IMG/VR virus record: IMGVR_UViG_3300030442_000019
DNA: 54,054 bases
Source: a virus
Direction: 5' to 3' (one strand)
Shown: positions 5,217 to 54,054 of the stretch, one piece after another
Layout: each line of letters begins with the position of its first letter
Numbering within the stretch: the first letter of the stretch is position 1
Translations under genes and position numbers: made by a program
The notes under the pieces: model-generated
What the model saw: the letters and a program-made list of their open reading frames with translations, nothing else
What the model was told of the DNA's origin: nothing
The model's database searches: none

Positions 5217-5309
5217 TCGGGATACACGGAATCGAACCGTGGACATAAGTCTTTTTTTTCAAAGAGATGATGGATTGTGACTTTTGTTCTACCATTGAAC
5301 TATATCCCG
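5217..5309 (-). tRNA. tRNA-like element with an expanded (27-nt) anticodon loop; possible pseudo-tRNA or atypical tRNA
   Basis: Acceptor stem CGGGATA/TATCCCG, D arm GTTC-AATGGTA-GAAC and T arm CACGG-TTCGATT-CCGTG. The anticodon stem AAGTC/GACTT encloses 27 nt instead of 7. Confidence 0.5.
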
Positions 5310-16580: not shown

Positions 16581-17903
16581 TTAATATTGCCATCTTAAGC
16601 GCCTTCTTAAGAATGTGTAGCAGAAATACCTTGTATCATCCATAGCGTGGTCATTTTCTTTAATAACTGCATCCTCACTCTTTTCTTCATCCCATCGGTA
16701 CATACCGAATTCGTTAATACAGTCTTTGCAGTCTTCGTATATCTTAAGCATGCCTTTGTTTAGCATGGTTGTAACCACACGGATACCGTCAAGCACATCA
16801 TTATCTGCTTTCTTTACTGTATATTCTCCGTATTTCTTAATGACTTCGATGAATGATGCAGCAGACGGATCTATGATGATGCAATACACCTTTCTATCAC
16901 CTATCAGCTCTTTCAGCATCTTATAATATGCTTCATCATCCACTCTCTTCCCGGTCTCACGGCTGTTATAATACACTTCTGCTTCTCTCTGTGCCGTGCG
17001 TCCATTGAACGCCCACAGTCCGGCAGAGAACGGATTGACTGTACCGTAGTCAATAGATATGATGTATTCTTTCGCTCCTGTCATGTGTTCGTGTGCTACG
17101 TGCTTTTCTTCATCAAACATCTGATAGACAAGTCCCTCGGCCACACACCACAATCCTAAGATATACCGTTTGAAGAACACACCTACATACATGCTTCGGT
17201 ATCTCTTCTTAATTGTTTCAGACAGAGACAGGTTATCATCCATCGTAAAATGCAGATACAAAATATTCTTCTGATCGCACTTATCAATCCAGTTGACTTT
17301 GAACCAGTGTCGAGGCCCGTCCGGGTTACAGTTGAACCAGTACTTAGAACCTGTCACTGAGCAACGGCCTGTTGCCTGGTTAACAAACGATTCCGGCATC
17401 AATGCCACTTCGTCAAAAAACATTCCGGCAAGGGTGATTCCCTGTATCAAGTCCTGTGAACGTTCATCTTTGCCACCGAATATATAGAAGAAGTTCTGCA
17501 CATTTCCCTTGCTGACCACAATAAGGTTGTCCGACCGATGGTCTACCACCGTATATCCACGGCTTTTTAACATCAGTTTCAACCAGAACAGTACATTACG
17601 CCGAAATGATCCGATAGTCTTTCCGGCCATACCGAAATTCTGTTGATTGAATGTACTCATCGCCCATAGAACATAAGATAGTGACATACACAGTGTCTTA
17701 CCGCTTCGGATAGCTCCGTCAGCTATGATTCCCTCTTTGTTCTTTACAGGACTGGATTCACACCACCAGGTAAGTACTTTCTTCTGTTTAACAGAAAAAG
17801 GCTTGAACTCAAATCCTTGCTTCTTAGCCTTTTCTTTCATGGCAACCGCATGCTTCATAATGCTTTGCCGGATGTTCTGTATTCTGTTCTCAATACTACT
17901 CAT
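16581..17903 (-). CDS. terL: Terminase large subunit (PBSX-like)
   Basis: Walker A motif GAIRSGKT. The track ORF extends to 17930, but the ATG at 17903 has the better RBS. Confidence 0.9.
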   Translation of the reverse strand: MSSIENRIQNIRQSIMKHAVAMKEKAKKQGFEFKPFSVKQKKVLTWWCESSPVKNKEGIIADGAIRSGKTLCMSLSYVLWAMSTFNQQNFGMAGKTIGSFRRNVLFWLKLMLKSRGYTVVDHRSDNLIVVSKGNVQNFFYIFGGKDERSQDLIQGITLAGMFFDEVALMPESFVNQATGRCSVTGSKYWFNCNPDGPRHWFKVNWIDKCDQKNILYLHFTMDDNLSLSETIKKRYRSMYVGVFFKRYILGLWCVAEGLVYQMFDEEKHVAHEHMTGAKEYIISIDYGTVNPFSAGLWAFNGRTAQREAEVYYNSRETGKRVDDEAYYKMLKELIGDRKVYCIIIDPSAASFIEVIKKYGEYTVKKADNDVLDGIRVVTTMLNKGMLKIYEDCKDCINEFGMYRWDEEKSEDAVIKENDHAMDDTRYFCYTFLRRRLRWQY

Positions 17904-18360
17904 CCGTCCATACCTCGCTCGCTGTTGCATTTAGGGCATCCAAGAAGTTATCAGTGCTTTCTTCCTCTGGTGTAGAATCTTTGTATTGTGCTTCTAATTT
18001 GGCAAGTTCGATATCCATTCGTCTATCGTCCATATTGCGCTTGAGTAATTCTTGCGCACACCTTGTGCGTTCGGATAATGGAGCGTCTAAGTCGAATTGA
18101 TCTTTCACTTCTCCGCGCATGACAGATGTAAGATACTGCATAATCTCAGTGATATCTGCGATACGTGCATCATCTATTTGTTTTTGTCGTTTCTGTATAT
18201 ATTCCAAAACGACAGGTTTTTTCATATTCTCCGCTCCGGCTTGTCTCGCCGTCTTCTCACTATATCCGGCTCTCTTTGCAGCTTCTGTCTGATTCCCGCA
18301 CTTTAAGAATTCATCAGCAAACGCTTTCTGCTTCGGAGTAGGTTCTTTCCCTTTCGGCAT
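17896..18360 (-). CDS. terS: Terminase small subunit (Terminase_2 / P27-like)
   Basis: Motif KQKAFADEFLKCGNQTEAAKRAGYSEKTARQAG. Confidence 0.85.
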   Translation of the reverse strand: MPKGKEPTPKQKAFADEFLKCGNQTEAAKRAGYSEKTARQAGAENMKKPVVLEYIQKRQKQIDDARIADITEIMQYLTSVMRGEVKDQFDLDAPLSERTRCAQELLKRNMDDRRMDIELAKLEAQYKDSTPEEESTDNFLDALNATASEVWTDE

Positions 18361-18966: not shown

Positions 18967-19107
18967 ACACTCACCTACCTTTTCCGCATACAAAAATAGC
19001 ACCTCCCACGATAATTACATCTTACCGTCAGAAGTGCTATTTCATTGTCCCCGTTATTTAGTTTTGATACTTATATTTTACCATAAAATGTACATTTTTT
19101 CAACTTT

Positions 19108-19902
19108 TTATAAGTTTGGACTATAATTTGTGATCGTATCCATATGCTCTATATATGCCACACCATTTTTTATCCCAAACGCAAGTATTATTCCACCTTT
19201 TATCTTTATATTCGGTGTCTCTCCGTTTCTTAATGGCAAAAATATACCATCTGCCACTACAAGCATGCTGTACCCTCTGCATTTTAATCCCTTTAAAATA
19301 TCATAAAAGAATTTTATTTGCAGCCCCTCTTCTTTTTCCACAAGATACATTCTGCTAAAAGTATAAGGCTTTTTTACATTATATGTGCAGCCAATAGGAT
19401 ATCCCTTTCCTTTTTGTTCTTTTGGTATGTTCTTCTCGCTTATAGATTTTTCCGTCCAATTCTCCAAGCCATATTTCCTGTATAGCTCTGGTTCTTCAAG
19501 CAAGAAAAACTTTACCACGTCTTTCTTTGTCTTCTTTATATTTCTAATATTATCTTTTATGTATTCCTTATACCAGTTGTATTTTTCCGGGAGTCCCGTT
19601 CTTTCGAAATATTCATCAATTTCAGAATTTTTTAATTTTTCGACGTTCCGACAGAAGAACGACATCCAGTTGTTGCTAAGTATAAGTTTGCTTTTTATCG
19701 GTTTCTGCATGGATACCAATCCCGAATAGTAGTCCATCATCTTGTATTTGCTGTTAAATTCTACTCTTTTCTCATTCCTTATTATTTTTGCATCTTTCCC
19801 GTTTGTGTTCACATAGATGTATATAGCTGGTGCCGGGTAATGCTCCTGTACCGCTCTATCTTCCAAGTTATCAATTCCTATGTATTCTATTGCTTCTCTC
19901 AT
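19108..19902 (-). CDS. AT-rich accessory gene of unknown function
   Basis: Start refined to MREAIEYIG, which has the RBS GAGGT. The region is visibly more AT-rich than its surroundings. Confidence 0.6.
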   Translation of the reverse strand: MREAIEYIGIDNLEDRAVQEHYPAPAIYIYVNTNGKDAKIIRNEKRVEFNSKYKMMDYYSGLVSMQKPIKSKLILSNNWMSFFCRNVEKLKNSEIDEYFERTGLPEKYNWYKEYIKDNIRNIKKTKKDVVKFFLLEEPELYRKYGLENWTEKSISEKNIPKEQKGKGYPIGCTYNVKKPYTFSRMYLVEKEEGLQIKFFYDILKGLKCRGYSMLVVADGIFLPLRNGETPNIKIKGGIILAFGIKNGVAYIEHMDTITNYSPNL

Positions 19903-19912
19903 TTTTCTACCT

Positions 19913-20200
19913 CTACAATAATTCAATTTCTGTAATTCTTACAATTGTATCTAATGGGTTCTCTTTCTTCTCCACCACTTCGAAGCTGTAGTTAATCCAT
20001 ACCGGGCAGTTCGACTCTCCGTCTACTCCACAATCCGATATCTTATAGCTTACTGATCCGGCATCAGTTGGATCATCACCATTTCCATCCCATATATCAT
20101 TAATCTCTACTTCTTCCCCGACTTCCACTTCTGGCAAGTACTCAATTTTGCAATCTCCATTTTGATTAATGTCATAACCTTCTTGTATAATACTATTCAT
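19913..20200 (-). CDS. Acidic small protein, paralog of 20289-20519
   Basis: 95 aa. It shares EVGEE...D.W...FE.V....ENP..T.V.IT.I with the 76-aa ORF. Confidence 0.65.
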   Translation of the reverse strand: MNSIIQEGYDINQNGDCKIEYLPEVEVGEEVEINDIWDGNGDDPTDAGSVSYKISDCGVDGESNCPVWINYSFEVVEKKENPLDTIVRITEIELL

Positions 20201-20218
20201 CTTATTGTCCTCCTAAAT

Positions 20219-20260
20219 ATAAAAAGATGTATAGATAGCCTGTCTGTGTATCTATACATC
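20219..20260 (-). terminator. Rho-independent terminator
   Basis: Perfect 12-bp stem GATGTATAGATA/TATCTATACATC with an 11-nt loop, followed by T5 on the minus strand. Confidence 0.75.
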
Positions 20261-20288
20261 TCATGTTACGGTTTATCATATCTTTATA

Positions 20289-20519
20289 TTATCTTATGCC
20301 TGTGATTTTTACAAGTGTGTTAACTGGATTTTCTTCGTCTTCTGCTACGATTTCGAAATCTGCAATGATTGGTTCGTCATCTTCTCCGTTTGCAACGTGT
20401 ACGCATTCGCTTTCGAGAAGTTCCTCTACGTCTCCGTCTTCTGTCTGCCATAAATCTGCAAATCTGATTTCTTCTCCAACCTCTAATTCTGCTCCATTAA
20501 ATATTTCAACTTTCATCAT
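20289..20519 (-). CDS. Very acidic small protein (anti-defence candidate)
   Basis: 76-aa ORF with RBS AGGAGGT, driven by promoter copy 1. Confidence 0.7.
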   Translation of the reverse strand: MMKVEIFNGAELEVGEEIRFADLWQTEDGDVEELLESECVHVANGEDDEPIIADFEIVAEDEENPVNTLVKITGIR

Positions 20520-20552
20520 CTTTCTTTACCTCCTGTAATGTTCTCTGTTTTT

Positions 20553-20593
20553 TTAACTGTCTTTATTATAGCATAGTGGTGTCCACTAGTCAA
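20553..20593 (-). promoter_or_regulatory. Consensus sigma-A-type promoter with an embedded palindromic operator (copy 1)
   Basis: On the minus strand: TTGACT, a 17-nt spacer, then TATAAT. The spacer contains the 15-bp palindrome TAGTGGACACCACTA. The 41-bp block is identical to 21471-21511. Confidence 0.8.
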
Positions 20594-20599
20594 TAGTTT

Positions 20600-20782
20600 T
20601 TATTTATTTTTCTTAATAGTTATCACACCGTCTTTTTCTTCTAAGACAACACTTCTATCCTCTTCCGTAACGCCCAGTGCCTTTATCATTCCTACCGGAA
20701 TAGAAATACGGTAGTTCTTTGTATTCTTGCCAGATGTTCCCCCGGCTTTGTTTATCATGACGTTTCTTTTTGCTTTCTCCAT
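20600..20782 (-). CDS. AbrB/SpoVT (MazE-like) DNA-binding protein
   Basis: 60 aa with YRISIPVGMIKALGVTEEDRSVVLEEKDGVITIKK. Confidence 0.65.
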   Translation of the reverse strand: MEKAKRNVMINKAGGTSGKNTKNYRISIPVGMIKALGVTEEDRSVVLEEKDGVITIKKNK

Positions 20783-20796
20783 TACTATCTCCTTTT

Positions 20797-21015
20797 TTAT
20801 CGCAATATTGCAATCACTTCCGCGTTTCTTATAATGATTTCGTCTTTATCGTTTCCGTATTGCATTACGTTTCCACCGATTAAGTATGTTTTTTCTACGT
20901 AAGATTTTACGGCTTCAATCATTTCTTCGATATTGTTTTCAGATACTTTAAGTGCACATGTGCCGTCAAGTTCTCCACCGTCGTAGAATCCGACATAAGG
21001 ACCGTCTGAAATGCT
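20797..21015 (-). pseudogene. Start-less 72-codon open frame, in frame with the upstream gene after TAATAA
   Basis: My own translation is SISDGPYVGFYDGGELDGTCALKVSENNIEEMIEAV...AILR. There is no ATG, GTG or TTG before codon 32. Confidence 0.35.
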
Positions 21016-21018
21016 TTA

Positions 21019-21441
21019 TTAAATCATTATGCATGTTTCGTTTTCGCCCTCGTAATTGTCTTCCGCTTCTTCCGCTTCTTCCAGGCTTGAGCAGATCGCT
21101 ATTGTTTCATGGCTAGGTATTTCAACGACTTCAATTTTCATCTCTGTGCTTTCTAATGTGTCAATAAAATCTGTCTGTACAAATTTGCTTTCGTCTTCGT
21201 CATATTCAAATTCATTTTCTTCAATTACATACTCTTCAACCTTGTAGAATGTCATTCCGTGGCAAGAAAATTTGCTAACATCTGTTTTACGTTTTGCAAG
21301 TTCCTTTTTCGCTTCCTCCAGTGTATCGAATGTTTTTATATATTCCGGCGAATCGTCAAAAGCCGTGCATCCTTCTTCAATTTCTTTTCTATCTTTATAC
21401 TTAATTTCTGCCGTTCTTTTTACTAAATCATATTTTTTCAT
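21019..21441 (-). CDS. Highly acidic protein (anti-defence / DNA-mimic candidate)
   Basis: 140-aa ORF with RBS AGGAGGAA, driven by promoter copy 2. Confidence 0.7.
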   Translation of the reverse strand: MKKYDLVKRTAEIKYKDRKEIEEGCTAFDDSPEYIKTFDTLEEAKKELAKRKTDVSKFSCHGMTFYKVEEYVIEENEFEYDEDESKFVQTDFIDTLESTEMKIEVVEIPSHETIAICSSLEEAEEAEDNYEGENETCIMI

Positions 21442-21470
21442 TTTTCTTCCTCCTGTGATGTGTTCCTTTC

Positions 21471-21511
21471 TTAACTGTCTTTATTATAGCATAGTGGTGT
21501 CCACTAGTCAA
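21471..21511 (-). promoter_or_regulatory. Consensus sigma-A-type promoter with an embedded palindromic operator (copy 2)
   Basis: Identical 41-bp block. The -35 is at 21506-21511, the -10 at 21483-21488 and the palindrome at 21492-21506. Confidence 0.8.
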
Positions 21512-21551: not shown

Positions 21552-21687
21552 TCTCTTAATCTATATATTTATATTTCCGGCTCCCGTCTTTATTTTCTTA
21601 ATCATATAATAGAATCTTGGTCTTTTCTTCCTTTTCTCCACTTCCTACCGCTGTTGGGATGATGGTGGGAACACGAGAAAGTACCTA

Positions 21688-23043
21688 TTAATATATGCTA
21701 AAATGTATGTCTATGTCATCTTCTGTGATAACCACCTTTTCAACACACTCTTTTAGCACCTTGTTTTTCTCGGAATCCGTCAGTGTATCCCACACGTTGG
21801 ACATCTCTTTTATTTTCTCTATTTTTTCTCCCCGTCCAGCTTTCTCCCGGATGTCTTCTGCCTTTAGTTCTTCCTGTAGATTTTTCAGTTTTTTTTCTTC
21901 TGTCTGGATAACATCAAAAAGTGTATCTGTACCGGAACTACCGCTTGCATACAATGTGTATAGGCGTTTCAGTTTTGCTTCGCTTAGTGATATCTCTTTT
22001 TCTATCATCTTCCTGGTGCTTTCGGATTCATTCTCTTTTTCTTCGACATTAACGATGAATCTTTTAAAGCAGTCCTCTACTTCTTTTTCTACCACATCTG
22101 CCCGCACCTTTTTATTCTTGCAAGGGTTCCCTGTCTTAGATATATGCTCTTTTTCCTTGTACTGTGAGTAACATACTATCTTGGTGTACTTTCCCCACTT
22201 TTGCATCCGCATTTTGGTGCCACATTTTCCGCAGTAACACAAACCGGTAAGCATATGCTTGTTGCTTACATAAGCATTTGTGGATCTCTTTTTTATCTCT
22301 TCCTGTACTTCGTAGAATAGTTTTTCGTCTATGATTGGTTCATGCAAGCCTTGGTATGTTTTTCCTTTATATTGTATTTTACCTACATAAGCTATTCGCC
22401 TAATAATGTTCGATACAAGCTTCTCTGAATGCATCCCGAGGATTTTTTGAATCCTATCACACGAATATCCGTCCCGGAACATCTGAAAGATAGCTTTTAC
22501 CTTTTCCGCTTCTTCCGGGATGATATGTAATATCCCATCGTTCCTGTCGTACCTATATCCGTACGGTATCGTACCACCACCCATCCACAGTCCACGCTTT
22601 ACACGCTCCACCATCCCGGCTCTTGTACGCATATAGATAACCTCACGCTCATACTGCCCCATGACCGCATTAACGCCCAGCATCACACGATCCATCGGTG
22701 TCTCATTCCGCAAATCCTCTGTAGCCGATACTACCTCTACATTGTATTTTGGTAAGAGCTTACTCACAAGCGTAAGAGTATCTACAACATCACGGCTCAT
22801 TCTGTCAAGCTTATAGATGTATACTGCCTGTATTTCTCCGGCTTCTGCATCTTCCAGAAGTTTCTGTATGTTCGGTCTTTGGATATTGCTCCCGGAATAT
22901 CCCCCGTCTACATACCATCTGGCTATCTTCACGCCCCTTTTCTTGGCAAGTTCCTTTATCTTGTCTTCTTGGACATCAAGACCATACTTTTCGGCCTGTG
23001 CTTCTGTAGACACTCTCATATAACCTACATTTAATTTTTTCAT
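21688..23043 (-). CDS. int: Large serine recombinase (integrase)
   Basis: The resolvase-type N-terminus is GYMRVSTEAQ...YKLDRMSRD. It also has a recombinase domain, a Cys-rich zinc ribbon and a coiled coil. Start refined to MKKLNVGY. Confidence 0.9.
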   Translation of the reverse strand: MKKLNVGYMRVSTEAQAEKYGLDVQEDKIKELAKKRGVKIARWYVDGGYSGSNIQRPNIQKLLEDAEAGEIQAVYIYKLDRMSRDVVDTLTLVSKLLPKYNVEVVSATEDLRNETPMDRVMLGVNAVMGQYEREVIYMRTRAGMVERVKRGLWMGGGTIPYGYRYDRNDGILHIIPEEAEKVKAIFQMFRDGYSCDRIQKILGMHSEKLVSNIIRRIAYVGKIQYKGKTYQGLHEPIIDEKLFYEVQEEIKKRSTNAYVSNKHMLTGLCYCGKCGTKMRMQKWGKYTKIVCYSQYKEKEHISKTGNPCKNKKVRADVVEKEVEDCFKRFIVNVEEKENESESTRKMIEKEISLSEAKLKRLYTLYASGSSGTDTLFDVIQTEEKKLKNLQEELKAEDIREKAGRGEKIEKIKEMSNVWDTLTDSEKNKVLKECVEKVVITEDDIDIHFSIY

Positions 23044-23106
23044 GTCAATTCTCCTTTCAATTAAAAAAGAATTGACCAAGATTCTATCAAGGTCAATTCT
23101 AAAATA

Positions 23107-23229
23107 TCACTTATTTTTTGTCAACTTTTCTGAAAGAATCCTTTTTACCGCCTTGTTATGGATTTCATATTTGGAAAGTTCTTCTTTTGTCACCTGTTTT
23201 CCGTTCACATAGATTCTTACCATCCGCAT
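23107..23229 (-). CDS. 40-aa basic protein upstream of int
   Basis: My own translation is MRMVRIYVNGKQVTKEELSKYEIHNKAVKRILSEKLTKNK. TGATG overlap. Confidence 0.35.
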   Translation of the reverse strand: MRMVRIYVNGKQVTKEELSKYEIHNKAVKRILSEKLTKNK

Positions 23230-27555: not shown

Positions 27556-28464
27556 CTACCCTGTATAATCTTCAAACCGTTCACACGCCATAAATGCGTA
27601 TCTGGAATTTACCCATCTCTGCATTCTTTTCAGCTGATCACGCTTCTTCAATTTGTATTTGTCATAAATCATCACATATGGGGCATATCCTAAATCCCTT
27701 AGTGTGTATATCCGGTCAAGGTCTTGTTCCAATGTTGTGTTAAATCCGCATAAGACATACACCGTCATCTTCCCTCTGTTCCATCCAGTTAACTTTTGAA
27801 ACATCTTAAATTTTGGCACTATATTGTCTTTATCCTGGTATCTATCCCACGCAAAATGTATCTGCTTAATCTTCATCTGCTTGATATATTCCGCTTTTTC
27901 TTTGGTCATAATCCGAATGTCGCAACCTTGCGAAAAATCTATCCAAGCCTTGCTATCAATAAGTTGTTGGCTCAGATTTTCCCAGTCCTTGCAAGCGAAC
28001 ATATTTGGATCCAGCAAAACGATATTCTTCTGACCATTCCAGAATTCAGACAAATCAGCTACCTTACGGCTTTTCTGTCCCTCTTTTTCTTTCACGATGC
28101 AGAAATCGCAACCTCTTGGACATCCTCTTGTCAAGAATCCATATGCCATATTTCTGCATAATTCTGGATACAGGCTGTAATCTGGATAGATGTGTTCAAT
28201 TTTGTCCGGCAATGACTTGCCACCGGATGGATATTCGTATCCTGTACCGCCCTTAATTATTTCTCCAGCACACACTGGATGAGGATAATCCGGTGTAAAG
28301 GTAAATACCTTGCTCATATATACCCTGTCTGGTGGATTTAGCCATGCAGTCAGCGGATCATACCACTCTACTTGATCTCCGTTCTGCTTATGCCATGCCG
28401 ACAGCTTCATAAGTGGCAGATTTGGAAAATTGTGTCCGTCTACGTCAATTAGTGCTATTCTCAT
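27556..28464 (-). CDS. Radical SAM enzyme
   Basis: CxxxCxxC motif in GFLTRGCPRGCDFCIV. The N-terminal region is Rossmann/B12-like. Confidence 0.75.
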   Translation of the reverse strand: MRIALIDVDGHNFPNLPLMKLSAWHKQNGDQVEWYDPLTAWLNPPDRVYMSKVFTFTPDYPHPVCAGEIIKGGTGYEYPSGGKSLPDKIEHIYPDYSLYPELCRNMAYGFLTRGCPRGCDFCIVKEKEGQKSRKVADLSEFWNGQKNIVLLDPNMFACKDWENLSQQLIDSKAWIDFSQGCDIRIMTKEKAEYIKQMKIKQIHFAWDRYQDKDNIVPKFKMFQKLTGWNRGKMTVYVLCGFNTTLEQDLDRIYTLRDLGYAPYVMIYDKYKLKKRDQLKRMQRWVNSRYAFMACERFEDYTG

Positions 28465-30534: not shown

Positions 30535-30653
30535 TTTCTATCCCTCCTAAACCAAAACTTTCGTTTCTTCTTTTCTCGTTTCTCTTTCTGCTTTTTAGAC
30601 CACTCTGCAAGATATTGTTCCTGTTCCTGATCTTCCTGTTCCTGTCGTGTCAC
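30531..30653 (-). CDS. 40-aa micro-ORF (MTRQEQ...) linking RT and the DUF4317-like gene
   Basis: The GTG overlaps the RT stop (TAGTG) and its stop overlaps the next GTG (GTGA). The N-terminus is duplicated at 33557. Confidence 0.35.
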   Translation of the reverse strand: MTRQEQEDQEQEQYLAEWSKKQKEKREKKKRKFWFRRDRK

Positions 30654-30664
30654 TATGTCACCTC
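30635..30664. repeat. 30-bp direct repeat, copy A (28 of 30 identical to 33539-33568)
   Basis: CCTGTTCCTGTCGTGTCACTATGTCACCTC against ...CACAAAGTCACCTC. Confidence 0.85.
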
Positions 30665-31681
30665 TTTCATCAATTCCTCTATATACAGATCCATACTATG
30701 AACCAACTTAATACAATTTCCATGCAATGCATGGTTCTTCCATGAATTATATTTCTCATAGAATTTTTCTTCCGTGAGTTTCCAAGCTTTCACGTCTTTC
30801 ACCAATTTTCGGAATTTCTTTTTGTTCTTCCGCTTATTCTCTCCTGTCAGCTTCCGAATATATTTCCCATCGGCCGTCATATAATGATGGAACCCTAAAT
30901 ATCGCATTCCTTTTCTAAACGGTATGATCTGTGTCTTTCCGTTCAATTCAAGTCCAAGTGTTTTTAGCATTTCTTTGATGCATTCCAAACACCATTTCAA
31001 ATATTCCTTATCTTGATGAATCAAGTAGAAATCGTCCATATATCTTCCATATTCAGTAATTCCAAGCTCGCCGGTTGCCATACAATCTACTGCATGGACC
31101 ATAAGCAGTGCATATACCTGTCCGGCTTGATTGCCAAGTGGTAAACCTGGATTCTTGCTACTATCAATCAGTGTATGATTCAGCCATGTTGTGTACGGGT
31201 CTGGGAAGAAATAATCTACAATATCTTTCAGTATTTCATGGTCAATTTCGTAAAAGAAATGTCTTATATCGCATTTCAATATCCATCCGTCTACGCCATG
31301 TCTCTGATAGAATGATTCCATGTGGTCCCTTAATCCATCTAATGCATACAGTGTTCCTTTTCCTATTTGTCCGGCAGAATTGTATTTTATAAATACATTC
31401 TTCAATTTTGGATGCAGAATGTTGTCACAGAGTATGTGTTGCACTACCTTATCTTTAAATGAACATGATTCAATTACTCTTTGTTTCGGCTCATATATTT
31501 CGAACCGGTTATACGGAGCAACTGTATATGTCTGATTCTCTAACTGCTCTTTTAGGATATTGATTCCGTCTAAAGCGACATTAGAAAATCTTGCAGTGCT
31601 GCTATTAAATTTCTTGCCAGACTTAGCTTTTCGATAAGCGTAATACAGATTCCCATAATCCGTGACAATTTCTCTATCCAT
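30653..31681 (-). CDS. DGR-type reverse transcriptase
   Basis: Motifs YMDDF and LPLGNQAGQ (the DGR form of the IGNxxSQ motif). It sits next to TR and avd. Confidence 0.9.
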   Translation of the reverse strand: MDREIVTDYGNLYYAYRKAKSGKKFNSSTARFSNVALDGINILKEQLENQTYTVAPYNRFEIYEPKQRVIESCSFKDKVVQHILCDNILHPKLKNVFIKYNSAGQIGKGTLYALDGLRDHMESFYQRHGVDGWILKCDIRHFFYEIDHEILKDIVDYFFPDPYTTWLNHTLIDSSKNPGLPLGNQAGQVYALLMVHAVDCMATGELGITEYGRYMDDFYLIHQDKEYLKWCLECIKEMLKTLGLELNGKTQIIPFRKGMRYLGFHHYMTADGKYIRKLTGENKRKNKKKFRKLVKDVKAWKLTEEKFYEKYNSWKNHALHGNCIKLVHSMDLYIEELMKEVT

Positions 31682-31774
31682 TGGTACTCCTTTATATTTA
31701 CCTCTATGAGGACGGTCCGTTTCCTTTTTGTATCTTTCCCGATTTCGGCTTGATGCCTACTCTGACTCCCTGTT

Positions 31775-31848
31775 ATACAGAATGGGCGCACCCCGTTACT
31801 GTTGTTGTAGTTATTGTTGTTGATGTTACCGGACGGAGAAACAACCGC
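31775..31848 (-). repeat. DGR template repeat (TR), non-coding
   Basis: The minus-strand sequence is GGTTGTTTCTCCGTCCGGTAACATCAACAACAATAACTACAACAACAGTAACGGGGTGCGCCC. The core has 19 adenines, mostly in AAC codons. Confidence 0.9.
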
Positions 31849-31874
31849 TTAACGGAAACGAACCTAAAGTGTAT

Positions 31875-32246
31875 TTATCTTTGCCGGTCTTTAGTTCTCC
31901 ATGCAATAGCCATATGTTTTACATCAGATACCAACTTTGACCAATATTCCACGCTTTTTTCACTGATGATATTTAGCTCATAGGACATCTCTATGTAGAA
32001 AAGTAGTTCATCGCAATACGTAATTGCTTTCGTCTGCATTTCAAGTCGATCTCTTTTATAATTCTTGATATCCGTTCTATTCGCTTCAAAGAGCATTTCA
32101 TAGATTTCCATTGACTTATTCTGCATTTTATCAACAAGTGAAAATCTATATTTTTTTGGATATCGGTTGGCATTGCTAGTCACTTTCAATGTATGTGTGG
32201 CCAGTTCCTTCGCCTTTTGAATTACTTTCAGATCATTCTCTGCCAT
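31875..32246 (-). CDS. avd: DGR accessory variability determinant (Avd)
   Basis: 123-aa basic helical protein between the target gene and TR. TAATG overlap with target 2. Confidence 0.8.
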   Translation of the reverse strand: MAENDLKVIQKAKELATHTLKVTSNANRYPKKYRFSLVDKMQNKSMEIYEMLFEANRTDIKNYKRDRLEMQTKAITYCDELLFYIEMSYELNIISEKSVEYWSKLVSDVKHMAIAWRTKDRQR

Positions 32247-32842
32247 TAATCATCATCTTCCTCACAAGATTCAAAGATTGAAGAGGAAAAGATACAAACT
32301 GGGCGCACCCCGCCACTGTAGTAGTAGCGACCGTAGCTGATGCTACCGGACGGAGAAACAACCCGAACAAAGGTGTCATCATTATTACAAGCCGTGCTGT
32401 CTGGTGTAAGTGTCCACCACCATTTACCCCTATTCGGCAGGAACTCTCTATACTTCCGGTATTCATCCACGGAAATAAGCGAAACATAATCTCTGCAAGT
32501 TCCATATTCCGTCTGACCATCTAACGAAAGTAAATTGCGTTCAAACTCGACCAGTGAATCTGCCCCTAATTCACTTTCAATCTTTTTGCGGAGATCAGTG
32601 TTTAACTCATTTCTCAAATCACTGGATTTCCAATCGTTGCAATTATCATCAAACTCTCTGTCTCCTCCGTAAAAATCTTCCGAAATTGCAAAATATCCTT
32701 TTTCAAGCTTGTCCAACACCAGCCACTTAATACCGGCAACCTCAATTGTCTTTCCGATTTCCGGCTGATATTTTTTTCTTAACTGTTCAAAAACTTCATT
32801 AAGATTTTTAAGGTTTTCTCCGAATTCTTTTAACGTCATCAT
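32246..32842 (-). CDS. DGR target protein 2 (DUF6273-like / C-type-lectin-fold C-terminus)
   Basis: 198 aa. The C-terminus WWWTLTPDS...VVSPSGSISYGRYYYSGGVRPVCIF contains VR1. Confidence 0.85.
   Translation of the reverse strand: MMTLKEFGENLKNLNEVFEQLRKKYQPEIGKTIEVAGIKWLVLDKLEKGYFAISEDFYGGDREFDDNCNDWKSSDLRNELNTDLRKKIESELGADSLVEFERNLLSLDGQTEYGTCRDYVSLISVDEYRKYREFLPNRGKWWWTLTPDSTACNNDDTFVRVVSPSGSISYGRYYYSGGVRPVCIFSSSIFESCEEDDD
32292..32363 (-). repeat. DGR variable repeat VR1
   Basis: 11 differences from TR, all at TR adenines. The flanks GGTTGTTTCTCCGTCCGGT and GGGGTGCGCCC are identical. Confidence 0.9.
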
Positions 32843-32845
32843 GTT

Positions 32846-33457
32846 TTACTCCTCCTCAACTTTGGATACAAAGATATTAGATTTTAATATACAAAATGGG
32901 CGCACCCCGAGACCGTCGTTGCAGTTAACGTAGTCGATGCTACCGGACGGAGAAACAACCGCTACTGAACACTTCCATCCTCTTTCTTTCGTACTCCAAG
33001 ATGTGCAAGTCCAGTACCAATCCGGGAGGTCTTTGTTTACAAGCAGATCATTGTATTCACGTGCTTCGTCAAATGTCAGAGGTCTTACTTTTGTCAAGAG
33101 TTTTCCAAATACTTCCTGTCCATCAACTGTTACTAATCCGGCTTCATTTGTACAAATATTTTCTTCTCCGAATTCATCAGAAAACTCATTGAGAATTTCG
33201 CCTTCGCACAGTTCTCTTAATAATGATTTCCTGTATTCCGTACAATCATCATCAAATTTCACATTTTCGCGATATAAGCCTTCTGTAATAACTACAGTGG
33301 AATCTTCTTTCTGTTCCAGTACAATGAATCTTCCGATGCCTGTAGCAAACTTCCCACCAATCGGAATATCTTTCAGCATCACTTTGTTTTTCTGGTCTTC
33401 TTTCTCGATAGCTGCTACTAATTTCTTTGCTAATTCCAATACATTACTTTTGCTCAT
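32846..33457 (-). CDS. DGR target protein 1 (paralog of target 2)
   Basis: 203 aa. The C-terminus WYWTCTSWS...VVSPSGSIDYVNCNDGLGVRPFCIL contains VR2. Confidence 0.85.
   Translation of the reverse strand: MSKSNVLELAKKLVAAIEKEDQKNKVMLKDIPIGGKFATGIGRFIVLEQKEDSTVVITEGLYRENVKFDDDCTEYRKSLLRELCEGEILNEFSDEFGEENICTNEAGLVTVDGQEVFGKLLTKVRPLTFDEAREYNDLLVNKDLPDWYWTCTSWSTKERGWKCSVAVVSPSGSIDYVNCNDGLGVRPFCILKSNIFVSKVEEE
32889..32962 (-). repeat. DGR variable repeat VR2
   Basis: 10 differences from TR, all at TR adenines. Confidence 0.9.
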
Positions 33458-40903: not shown

Positions 40904-40942
40904 TTTTGCTATCACCCCCCCCTGTATTTCGTTTGCAATATC

Positions 40943-40971
40943 ATAATATATCATTTGCAATTATTTGTCAA
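40943..40971 (-). promoter_or_regulatory. Leftward promoter: TTGACA, 17-nt spacer, TATTAT
   Basis: Read on the minus strand. It is flanked by TTTGCAAT-type repeats. Confidence 0.6.
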
Positions 40972-40981
40972 TAGAAAAATA

Positions 40982-41010
40982 TTGCATTTGCGATATTTTT
41001 ATGTTATCAT
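40982..41010 (+). promoter_or_regulatory. Rightward promoter: TTGCAT, 17-nt spacer, TATCAT
   Basis: It is upstream of the XRE-type gene and back to back with the leftward promoter. Confidence 0.55.
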
Positions 41011-41034: not shown

Positions 41035-41421
41035 ATGGAGTCAATAAACCAAAGAGTAAAAGAATTGAGATTAGCTCTTGAAATGAATCAGAAAACTTTT
41101 GGAGAACGGATCGGCGTTGCGCAAGCGTATTTATCTCAGATAGAAAAAGGAGACCGTGATGTTACAGACAAAATTTTCAGAATAATTTGTTTGGAAAATT
41201 GGAATGGGAAAACAGTTAGAGAAGAATGGTTCAGAAGCGGAAAGAAACCAATGTTTACCACTCAAACAAAAGACGAACAAATCACAGCGATGTTGGCAGA
41301 TATTCAAAGTATGGATGAATCTAATTTCAAATATAGATTAGTAGCTGCTCTATCAAAATTAGATTCTGACGGGTGGGATAATCTAGAAAAACTGATTGAT
41401 ATGATTTCAGAAGACAAGTAA
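41035..41421 (+). CDS. XRE-family HTH regulator
   Basis: Motif QRVKELRLALEMNQKTFGERIGVAQAYLSQIEKGDR. Confidence 0.8.
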   Translation: MESINQRVKELRLALEMNQKTFGERIGVAQAYLSQIEKGDRDVTDKIFRIICLENWNGKTVREEWFRSGKKPMFTTQTKDEQITAMLADIQSMDESNFKYRLVAALSKLDSDGWDNLEKLIDMISEDK

Positions 41422-53705: not shown

Positions 53706-54054
53706 ATTTACGAGTCCGAATACTCTTCTTAATTCTTCTTTTTCTTCTTCGCTTCGCTCTGGTGTCGCTTTAAGGTCAACAAGTTCTTTGTTGCTAGAAT
53801 AGAATTCTTTTTCCCAACTATCCAATTTCTTCCCTTTCGAGACTTTTTCACGAATGTTAGTGATAGTGCTGAACAGAGATTCTCCAATCTCCATAAAAAG
53901 TCCCATGAATGTCCACCAATGTAAGTACTCTTTCTCACGAATATCCTCATGTGCCACTTTATTAATGGCCGGAATCAGAATCTTTGCATCTTTTTTCCAA
54001 TCCATAAGTTGCGGTTTTTTCTTATCTCCCTTAAATCCGCAGTCGATAAACTCT
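53700..54054 (-). CDS. Tail assembly chaperone, Phage_Gp15-like (3' part of the gene that starts at 335)
   Basis: Same reading frame as 1-335 across the junction. The track ORF 53700-54005 is the portion from an internal Met. Confidence 0.75.
   Translation of the reverse strand, partial: EFIDCGFKGDKKKPQLMDWKKDAKILIPAINKVAHEDIREKEYLHWWTFMGLFMEIGESLFSTITNIREKVSKGKKLDSWEKEFYSSNKELVDLKATPERSEEEKEELRRVFGLVNN
53956..54054. repeat. Terminal overlap copy (identical to 1-99)
   Basis: Direct comparison of the window ends. Confidence 0.9.

Follow-up and report, generated by a model that had tools for sequence, protein, structure and literature searches.

Proteins of the anti-CRISPR-associated (Aca) families repress the promoters of anti-CRISPR (acr) genes by way of inverted repeats and can also control neighbouring operons (PMC6765145, PMC9410906, PMC13551039). 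All named Aca families were of the helix-turn-helix (HTH) type until 2026, when Aca14, a ribbon-helix-helix (RHH) protein, became the first exception, and the same paper, in which AbrB/SpoVT is not mentioned, asked whether further DNA-binding folds serve as Aca (PMC13551039). Some anti-CRISPR proteins (Acrs) are derived from Cas proteins, with AcrIB3 being a homologue of Cas5 and AcrIB4 corresponding to the last 90 residues of Cas8b (10.1101/2023.06.24.545427; reviewed in PMC13131331). In the same work 358 orphan viral cas genes were catalogued, and its Table S3 holds ‘cas8 CAS-I-B’ entries of ~620–830 nt (~200–275 codons) from phages of Clostridia (10.1101/2023.06.24.545427). In archaeal viruses a repeated strong-promoter sequence is a predictor of anti-defence genes (PMC11065993). 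Here we describe a locus at positions 19,913–21,511 of the IMG/VR virus record IMGVR_UViG_3300030442_000019, the whole stretch of 54,054 nucleotides that was analysed being called the window below. Two identical copies of a strong promoter with a putative operator in the spacer stand there together with genes for small, very acidic proteins and for an AbrB-like regulator. On balance we consider it probable that the locus is a modular accessory-gene expression array, built like an acr–aca operon around an AbrB-fold regulator and with cargo that would act against host defence.

The repeated element is a block of 41 bp present in two identical copies (20553–20593 and 21471–21511), which extends to 45 bp at one mismatch and is the only such repeat pair in the window besides a 99-bp assembly overlap. 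On the minus strand each copy reads TTGACT, 17 nt and TATAAT, just as the original prediction, made from the letters of the window, had proposed. Each copy agrees with the consensus at 11 of 12 positions and has an extended −10 TG. In the first cassette, P1 (21467–21511), the −35 element is located at 21506–21511, the −10 element at 21483–21488 and a putative dyad operator at 21492–21506, followed by the conserved leader start AAAGACAGTTAA; the respective positions in P2 (20549–20593, minus strand as well) are 20588–20593, 20565–20570 and 20574–20588. The dyad, TAGTGGACACCACTA, spans the final base of the −35 element and 14 nt of the spacer. It had been taken for a perfect palindrome of 15 bp, which it is not: arms of 6 bp (TAGTGG and CCACTA) enclose a non-symmetric ACA, and the reverse strand matches with three mismatches. 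No further copy of the dyad was found elsewhere in the window, even with three mismatches allowed. The leaders down to the ATG are alike in both copies, as had also been noticed before, being 41 and 45 nt long, purine-rich and unstructured, and a structured leader RNA as for Aca2 was thereby ruled out. Both promoters are of the near-consensus housekeeping-sigma type, and each copy, of which relatives have one to three, should by itself give strong expression.

The exact 29-bp core of the cassette was found in 24 IMG/VR contigs of 30–55 kb with one to three copies each. These contigs are relatives of the window with the gene order recombinase, variable region, phrog_33130 gene, coiled-coil gene and terminase, and their promoters occupy three fixed slots, of which the first comes after attP, the second behind the AbrB-like gene and the third behind the cargo of slot 2. 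In 46 copies, which come from 25 related genomes and represent 28 distinct contexts, there is hardly any variation in TTGAC...TATAATAAAGACAGTTAA. The flanks of the 46 copies differ, with the upstream flank being set by the slot and the downstream flank by the cargo. Scanning with the skeleton TTGAC-N18-TATAATAAAGACAG, in which the spacer was left free, gave at least 119 viral loci, and 91 different cores were found among them. Of these cores 53% contain a perfect inverted repeat of 5 bp or more, compared to 11% in shuffles, and the inverted repeats in the spacer vary by phage lineage. Other dyad classes come with a small gene of their own, HTH_26 or RHH-like, which ends 0–30 bp before the −35 element and is matched to its own dyad. 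One such locus (L083) has the 140-amino-acid (aa) cargo family of the window sitting under an RHH-type operator. In the IMG/VR loci L025–L139 this skeleton (TTGAC-N18-TATAAT-AAAGACAG) comes with many different spacer dyads and with small acidic open reading frames (ORFs) downstream.

The last gene of the P1 operon (20600–20782, minus strand) encodes a 60-aa AbrB/SpoVT/MazE-like DNA-binding protein, the predicted repressor of both P1 and P2. It matches PF04014 with an E value of 4.2e-5 and 23.9 bits, just under the cut-off of 24.7 bits (a divergent homologue reaches 20.4 bits), and phrog_2329 with E 3e-14, and it gave no hit in NCBIfam. The best sequence match in the PDB is 7xi6 (‘C56’, E 2.3e-4) with 3o27, 2l66, 1yfb, 1z0r and 2k1n found at E 0.08–1.3, and hhalign placed residues 15–60 on residues 5–49 of the AbrB N-domain (73% probability, E 3.1e-5). 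Taken together, these alignments suggest a weak but consistent likeness to solved proteins of the swapped-hairpin fold. In the relatives the regulator gene always follows the cargo of slot 1 and forms the 3' end of the small-gene operon.

The best Pfam match of this protein is the MazE_antitoxin/SpoVT-AbrB family, and self-repressing antitoxins of the AbrB fold are well known to be common (see also PMC11065993), as would fit the antitoxin of a toxin–antitoxin pair with the dyad as its autoregulatory operator and the acidic proteins as passengers. However, there is no constant partner gene, as the gene upstream belongs to any of four unrelated families and the one downstream is any of several or is missing; no neighbour falls into a toxin family in Pfam, PHROGs or PADLOC, and the same operator is found at the second and third promoters with unrelated cargo. 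For want of a conserved partner we have rejected a toxin–antitoxin pair, which we hold to be very improbable.

The association of regulator and dyad was analysed in both directions. Among 139 loci picked by the promoter skeleton, 28 encode an AbrB-like homologue and all 28 of these possess the dyad TGG-N3-CCA; four dyad-bearing loci without the homologue are truncated, and none of the 107 loci with other dyads encodes it. In the opposite direction 80 viral loci were picked by AbrB-like alignment alone (50–100% identity), 76 of which contain the dyad [AT][GT]TGG-N3-CCA[AC][AT]. This amounts to 121 sites compared to 3.2 expected (~38-fold), and in 72 of the 80 loci the dyad lies inside a TTGAC...TAnAAT promoter on the gene strand. 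Protein and dyad also vary together: the loop GGTSGK.TKNYR pairs with the arms AGTGG/CCACT and a centre of ACA or TGT, and the loops GGNAGK.S..Y, GGNASKNAY and GGSAGKNSVNY pair with ATTGG/CCAAT. The varying residues form the loop before a conserved Arg, which by the hhalign alignment is the region before Arg15 of AbrB, a residue known to contact DNA. In the most distant regulator subfamily a promoter with the ATTGG dyad stands directly before the regulator gene and is followed by an unrelated leader, so that the dyad follows the protein and not the leader.

With co-occurrence in both directions, covariation and the distant subfamily, the regulatory part of the original prediction (a strong promoter with an embedded operator and a small autoregulator) is well supported. 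A promoter that is optimal to begin with should be shut down by a protein that sits over its spacer, and from these comparisons we regard it as likely that the 60-aa protein binds the dyad and acts as a repressor. It would bind the 6-3-6 dyad (TAGTGG-ACA-CCACTA) as a symmetric dimer and thereby block RNA polymerase at both promoters, and the outcome would be a burst of expression followed by shut-off, a negative autoregulation as exerted by Aca proteins. The CI-like repressors of the phage (41035–42720) are unlikely binders of the dyad, as the window holds no other dyad and the dyad is found together with the AbrB-like gene. A 33-nt tandem repeat of 2.1 copies (40932–40998), with TTTGCAATA occurring three times, closely precedes the plus-strand repressor-like gene at 41035, and these repeats probably are operators of the lysogeny switch unrelated to the dyad.

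The two copies in the window are identical, and one might regard the repeat as the scar of a recent duplication or recombination event without any regulatory role, the inverted repeat then being fortuitous. As close relatives are very similar overall, the identity of the copies is weak evidence of selection. However, the core is kept where both of its flanks are unrelated, and in divergent phages its symmetry is kept by paired changes that turn the arms AGTGG/CCACT into ATTGG/CCAAT, and also where the centre is inverted from ACA to TGT. Together with the enrichment of the dyad around the regulator gene, these comparative data already speak against a scar, an explanation that we find hardly credible.

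All the genes described in the original prediction, for the 140-, 60-, 76- and 95-aa proteins, are indeed present on the minus strand, which carries every gene in the region 18.3–23.1 kb. With acidity taken from composition (net charge), the 140-aa protein (21019–21441) is very acidic, showing 29% D+E, a net charge of −22 and an isoelectric point (pI) of 4.35, and it belongs to a stand-alone family of ~140 aa. The likewise very acidic 76-aa protein (20289–20519, net charge −19) is a member of a family that is found in slot 1 of other phages. The acidic 95-aa protein (19913–20200) is its paralogue (BLASTP E 2e-5), as had been assumed before. The 140-aa family comprises ~80 clusters and the 76/95-aa family ~108 clusters, all of them unnamed ‘hypothetical’ proteins from phage or prophage contigs. 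Scans of the acidic proteins with Pfam, PHROGs, NCBIfam and PADLOC yielded no significant family, and DUF7336 gave a weak match in some of their homologues only. Between the 76-aa and 95-aa genes, where a terminator had been noticed before, we found a hairpin resembling an intrinsic terminator (20218–20262, minus strand) with a 14-bp stem and UUUUU, a folding energy of −18.6 kcal/mol and a z score of −4.05, with none of 200 shuffles being as good.

The ORF without a start codon that had been noticed behind the 140-aa gene does exist (20797–21012, minus strand, in frame past the TAA TAA stop), and it turned out to be the 3' remnant (residues ~58–128) of a 127–128-aa acidic gene that is intact elsewhere. 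It is 94% identical to residues ~58–128 of such an intact protein (P0084) and matches the 126-aa cargo family c4, to which the intact proteins are related, with a BLASTP E value of 7e-10; the same scar is found in all eight relatives with the 140-aa gene. Since the remnant matches intact 127–128-aa proteins, the 140-aa cassette has evidently taken the place of the promoter and the 5' half of an earlier gene. Read-through or recoding across TAA TAA was rejected, because the proteins in the ~80 homologue clusters of the 140-aa protein all stop at ~140 aa and the frame that follows is the end of another gene, one of 128 aa.

This remnant is one sign of a more general exchange. In the relatives slot 1 is occupied by one of four families (140, 86, 78 or 76 aa), slot 2 by a family of 62 or 126 aa, by a set of 76-, 95- and 264-aa genes or by nothing at all, and slot 3 by the 126-aa family with or without more genes, and the same cargo families recur across slots and in different combinations in related phages. 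Cargo cassettes are thus exchanged among phages through recombination with the conserved promoter and leader as one boundary, and the remnant is the scar of such an exchange. The first ORFs after promoters of this kind (98 distinct ones) have a median length of 82 aa and a median pI of 4.67, and 60% of them show a pI below 5 compared to 22–24% of the other ORFs in the same loci.

The original prediction had also likened the acidic proteins to DNA mimics, and in this respect it could not be upheld. AlphaFold models of the 140-aa and 76-aa proteins reached mean confidence values (pLDDT) of 93.9 and 88.3. Foldseek searches with both models against the PDB retrieved nothing at E ≤ 1e-3, be it Ocr, ArdA or a solved Acr, with the best match at E 0.06 and template-modelling (TM) scores below 0.33, and the matches in BFVD are uncharacterised phage proteins only. 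The acidic proteins other than the 95-aa one might be inhibitors of host defence or of other host factors.

More specific hints come from a gene just outside the flagged range. It starts 10 nt past the stop of the 95-aa gene (19108–19902, minus strand) and encodes a basic protein of 264 aa that matches the PADLOC model of Cas8b with an E value of 1.2e-13. Cas8b is the large subunit of type I-B Cascade. A profile of the 264-aa family, searched against 1.84 billion representatives, found dozens of proteins of 570–620 aa, each of them being matched over its first ~320 residues. The gene for the top match, P0287, has cas6 and cas7 as its neighbours on either side, and the C-terminal part of two others matches TIGR02591 (Cas8b/Csh1). 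With hhalign, residues 1–262 of the 264-aa protein align with residues 2–317 of 589 of a Cas8b encoded between cas6 and cas7 (99.55% probability, E 1.8e-23, 31% identity). By these alignments the protein is the N-terminal half of a Cas8b without the C-terminal domain. It is also an orphan, as no array-like tandem repeat was found in the window and scans with Pfam, PHROGs and PADLOC revealed no cas genes among its neighbours; a sequence search of the PDB with the protein and its family profile gave nothing useful.

The 95-aa protein is the constant partner of the Cas8b-like protein. In two distant loci (L141 and L144, 45–50% identity) a gene of the 95-aa family, encoding 92 and 83 aa, is located directly upstream (BLASTP 3.5e-30 and 3.8e-22), and with the pairing being kept in both of these distant relatives the two genes form a conserved pair. 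The equivalent slot of other relatives (L012, L014, L020, L196 and 11 further loci) contains a cargo of 144–186 aa, family c46, that matches three models of Cas8c (type I-C) over ~50 residues with a best E value of 8.8e-8. Different phages may carry fragments fitted to different CRISPR subtypes, as these matches suggest. Altogether, a Cas8b-like or Cas8c-like gene is found within 2.5 kb in 18 of the 80 regulator-anchored loci. A further Cas8b-like homologue, P0252 (330 aa), possesses a C-terminal HTH domain of RstR-like type (E 1.3e-9) and is, judged by its domains, a candidate inhibitor fused to a regulator domain, as in some bifunctional Acrs. Most likely the 95-aa and 264-aa proteins would act together as a faulty or competing subunit of the type I-B Cascade of the host, that is, as a Cas-derived anti-CRISPR, and transcription would probably get to their genes by reading through the hairpin behind the 76-aa gene. 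We lean slightly towards an anti-defence function for this pair and are less confident of such a function for any individual acidic protein.

Anti-defence, as originally proposed, is thus a plausible but unproven function of the locus, and it has gained additional support from the truncated Cas8b homologue, the Cas8c-like fragment in relatives and the precedent of Cas-derived Acrs. The cargo might also work in the opposite sense, as prophage-encoded defence or superinfection-exclusion genes that guard the lysogen. It is well established that variable islands at prophage ends often hold defence systems, one cargo in the relatives is a DUF4417/nuclease-like protein, and the sole PADLOC matches are Cas proteins. 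However, among 84 cargo representatives PADLOC detected no defence-system protein apart from the truncated Cas8 fragments, and the absence of any other match argues against a defence island. Moreover, the Cas8b homologue has neither its C-terminal half nor partner cas genes or an array, and 60–140 aa with net charges of −11 to −30 are atypical for defence effectors. We therefore regard guarding of the lysogen as improbable.

The place of the locus in the genome bears on another alternative. An exact terminal direct repeat of 99 bp (1–99 and 53956–54054) identifies the window as a circularly closed phage genome of ~53,955 bp. The phage is temperate and its host belongs to the Lachnospiraceae (gut Clostridia). 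It encodes a large serine recombinase as integrase (21688–23043, minus strand; Pfam Resolvase, Recombinase and Zn_ribbon_recom; phrog_95 integrase, E 8e-112), which in the circular form lies directly upstream of attP. Upstream of the recombinase, at 23044–23124, we observed a third near-consensus promoter, TTGACA-17-TAGAAT (11/12), overlapped by the short inverted repeats AGAATTGACCAAGAT and ATCAAGGTCAATTCT, which may mark a distinct site for the control of integrase expression. In three related contigs (L009, L011 and L018, positions 1–345) not the recombinase but the first 96 codons of sigG are found upstream of the first promoter, the flank being identified by NCBIfam SigG with E 1.3e-43. 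A metagenome-assembled genome (L147) contains an uninterrupted sigG that is 99.3% identical over the host flank and, by this alignment, is the gene that supplies attB. A 26-nt stretch of the flank has its other exact matches in Lachnospiraceae (Dorea, Acetatifactor and Lachnobacterium). The point at which phage and host sequences diverge in these junctions and in the uninterrupted sigG places the crossover region of attP at 21650–21660 (no strand assigned) and the crossover itself at ~21655, between the recombinase stop and P1. Going by the junctions, the relatives are integrated inside sigG, the gene of the forespore sigma factor, after codon ~96 in a Lachnospiraceae host.

Intervening elements are known in sporulation genes, where they have mostly split mother-cell genes. 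A split forespore gene such as sigG is in this light unusual, and our literature search found no report of one. Mapping of the att site also refines the earlier statement that the locus lies beside the integrase at a prophage end: this holds for the circular form only, and in the prophage the locus is outermost at the opposite end. Megablast against GenBank phages gave no match for the locus, and scanning GTDB genomes for the exact promoter pattern gave 0 matches, the hosts having been recognised instead from the sigG flank of integrated relatives.

With these data at hand the same regulation could also be imagined for cargo outside of defence, i.e. moron or host-takeover genes that act on host transcription, sporulation or metabolism in spore-forming lysogens. 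The phage integrates into a forespore sigma-factor gene, and the AbrB/SpoVT family is best known, as is well established, for transition-state and sporulation control. The locus is located in the prophage at the extreme end beside a host gene, a typical place for morons, and no acidic protein falls into any anti-defence family. On the other hand, the orphan half of Cas8b and the Cas8c-like fragment in relatives are hard to explain outside a CRISPR conflict, cassettes turn over fast and small acidic proteins are in excess, as is typical of genes in an arms race, and the dyad tracks a phage regulator and not a host site. We consider moron cargo unlikely, though well worth keeping in mind.

Several observations weigh against the anti-defence array that we prefer. 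The locus adjoins attP and the terminase genes and thus lies outside the obvious early region. The regulator remains just under the Pfam cut-off of PF04014 and its likeness to AbrB proper (73% in hhalign) is weak, and the two half-site classes that co-vary with the loop are the only ones and could go back to a small number of independent events among related phages. With Pfam, PHROGs, NCBIfam and PADLOC no acidic protein was assigned to a known family of anti-defence proteins, no dedicated anti-defence library of hidden Markov models having been used, and the two AlphaFold models (140 and 76 aa) match no solved structure. The Cas8c-like match covers just ~50 residues. Finally, the terminator-like hairpin stands between P2 and the Cas8b-like gene, for which no separate promoter was found, so that control of this gene by the regulator is an assumption.

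The neighbouring genes and some further features of the window were also recorded. The small and large terminase subunits (16581–18360) were assigned from ORF translations and not from the family-library scan, and the phage also encodes an endolysin, DnaD-like replication proteins, CI-type repressors and a reverse transcriptase. At 18985–19103 (minus strand), shortly before the phrog_33130 gene and the terminase genes, a promoter-like TTGAAA-17-TAAAAT with TG is followed by a very stable hairpin (−31 kcal/mol, z −7) and a U-run, where a leader transcript could be terminated or antitermination of the late genes could take place. The reverse-transcriptase gene (phrog_1423) in the region 30653–31681 stands beside three imperfect repeats of ~96 nt (31751–31846, 32268–32363 and 32865–32960; 65–78% identity to the reference copy), two of them at the 3' ends of neighbouring genes for 198 and 203 aa, and the layout of 30653–32960 is that of a diversity-generating retroelement with one template and two variable regions. 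A tRNA found with Rfam (5217–5309, minus strand, 52.6 bits, E 1.6e-8) is 93 nt long and was not called by ARAGORN; it may contain an insertion or a long variable arm. The early/replication region also encodes, at 27556–28464, a radical-SAM domain protein (phrog_9298, E 5e-114).

If the regulator binds as predicted, the set of folds that control counter-defence operons of phages would become wider, and the pairing of loop residues with half-sites would offer a simple and tractable specificity code. As the cassette of promoter and operator can be searched for by sequence, it led to the 98 distinct small, mostly acidic first-cargo ORFs and to 228 clusters of downstream ORFs overall, all from phages of Lachnospiraceae. 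For the Lachnospiraceae, which are abundant gut bacteria, we know of almost no anti-defence genes. The N-terminal-half homologue of Cas8b with its acidic partner is a concrete candidate for an inhibitor of type I-B systems that complements the C-terminal mimic AcrIB4. Taken jointly, the broader claims are tentative and as a set somewhat doubtful: an Aca-type family of AbrB/SpoVT fold as the third fold after HTH and RHH, in which one loop would determine the specificity for AGTGG or ATTGG and which would govern an array of freely pluggable cassettes; a two-component anti-CRISPR, made up of the acidic protein of 83–95 aa and the N-terminal half of Cas8b, that would poison type I-B Cascade; and a common promoter chassis, on which operator and regulator (AbrB-like, HTH_26 or RHH-like) can be exchanged and which would point to ~100 unexplored anti-defence candidates in phages of gut Lachnospiraceae.

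Compared to known systems, the locus is closest to acr–aca operons, with which it shares the strong promoter with an internal inverted repeat, the small and fast-evolving cargo first and the conserved DNA-binding gene last, the operator being repeated at an adjacent operon and a cas-derived gene among the cargo. Two features of acr–aca operons are missing. No cargo is homologous to a validated Acr in the general libraries Pfam and PHROGs, the Cas8b-like protein being a homologue of Cas, and the regulator belongs to no named Aca family, since as an AbrB/SpoVT-like protein it falls outside Aca1–14 by fold family, not by direct comparison with Aca sequences. With Cas-derived Acrs the 264-aa protein has in common that it is a homologue of a type I-B Cascade subunit, encoded in a Firmicute phage among small genes of no known function with neither an array nor a cas operon nearby. 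In contrast to AcrIB4 it corresponds to the N-terminal half of Cas8b (~2–317 of 589) and not to the C-terminal 90 residues, and unlike Cas-derived Acrs it comes with a constant acidic partner of 83–95 aa. Six related IMG/VR contigs, five of them with Cas8c-like or Cas8b-like cargo, are absent from Table S3 of the catalogue of orphan viral cas genes (10.1101/2023.06.24.545427).

The near-identical strong promoter before several small unrelated genes, the variable region and the presumed shut-off regulator also resemble the early sequence of archaeal viruses. The promoter is of sigma-70 type instead of B recognition element (BRE)/TATA, the operator lies in the spacer between −35 and −10, and the regulator is AbrB-like instead of the winged-HTH protein Aca8. 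As in the swapped-hairpin proteins of the AbrB/SpoVT/MazE type, the regulator has ~60 aa, and its R-[IV]-S/V-[IV]-P strand and ALG[IV]T align with residues 5–49 of AbrB. Ahead of the conserved Arg its Gly-rich loop (KAGGTSGKNTKNY) is longer than in AbrB proteins, and it has no C-terminal multimerisation domain. It is also tied to a defined 6-3-6 dyad, unlike AbrB of B. subtilis, for which we know of no clear consensus site. The acidic proteins are as small and extremely negative (net charge −19 to −30) as Ocr, ArdA and acidic Acrs, but show no similarity to Ocr or ArdA in sequence (Pfam and PHROG) or fold (Foldseek with the 140-aa and 76-aa models against the PDB). Finally, the exchange of cassettes recalls the PeSL ‘mobile regulatory cassettes’ of T4-type phages, in which, as reportedly described by Arbiol et al. 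in 2010, a repeated early-promoter element flanks small variable ORFs and seemingly provides the homology for their shuffling. The phages described here belong to another group, and their repeat differs from PeSL in that it also carries an operator with, as we infer, its cognate repressor.

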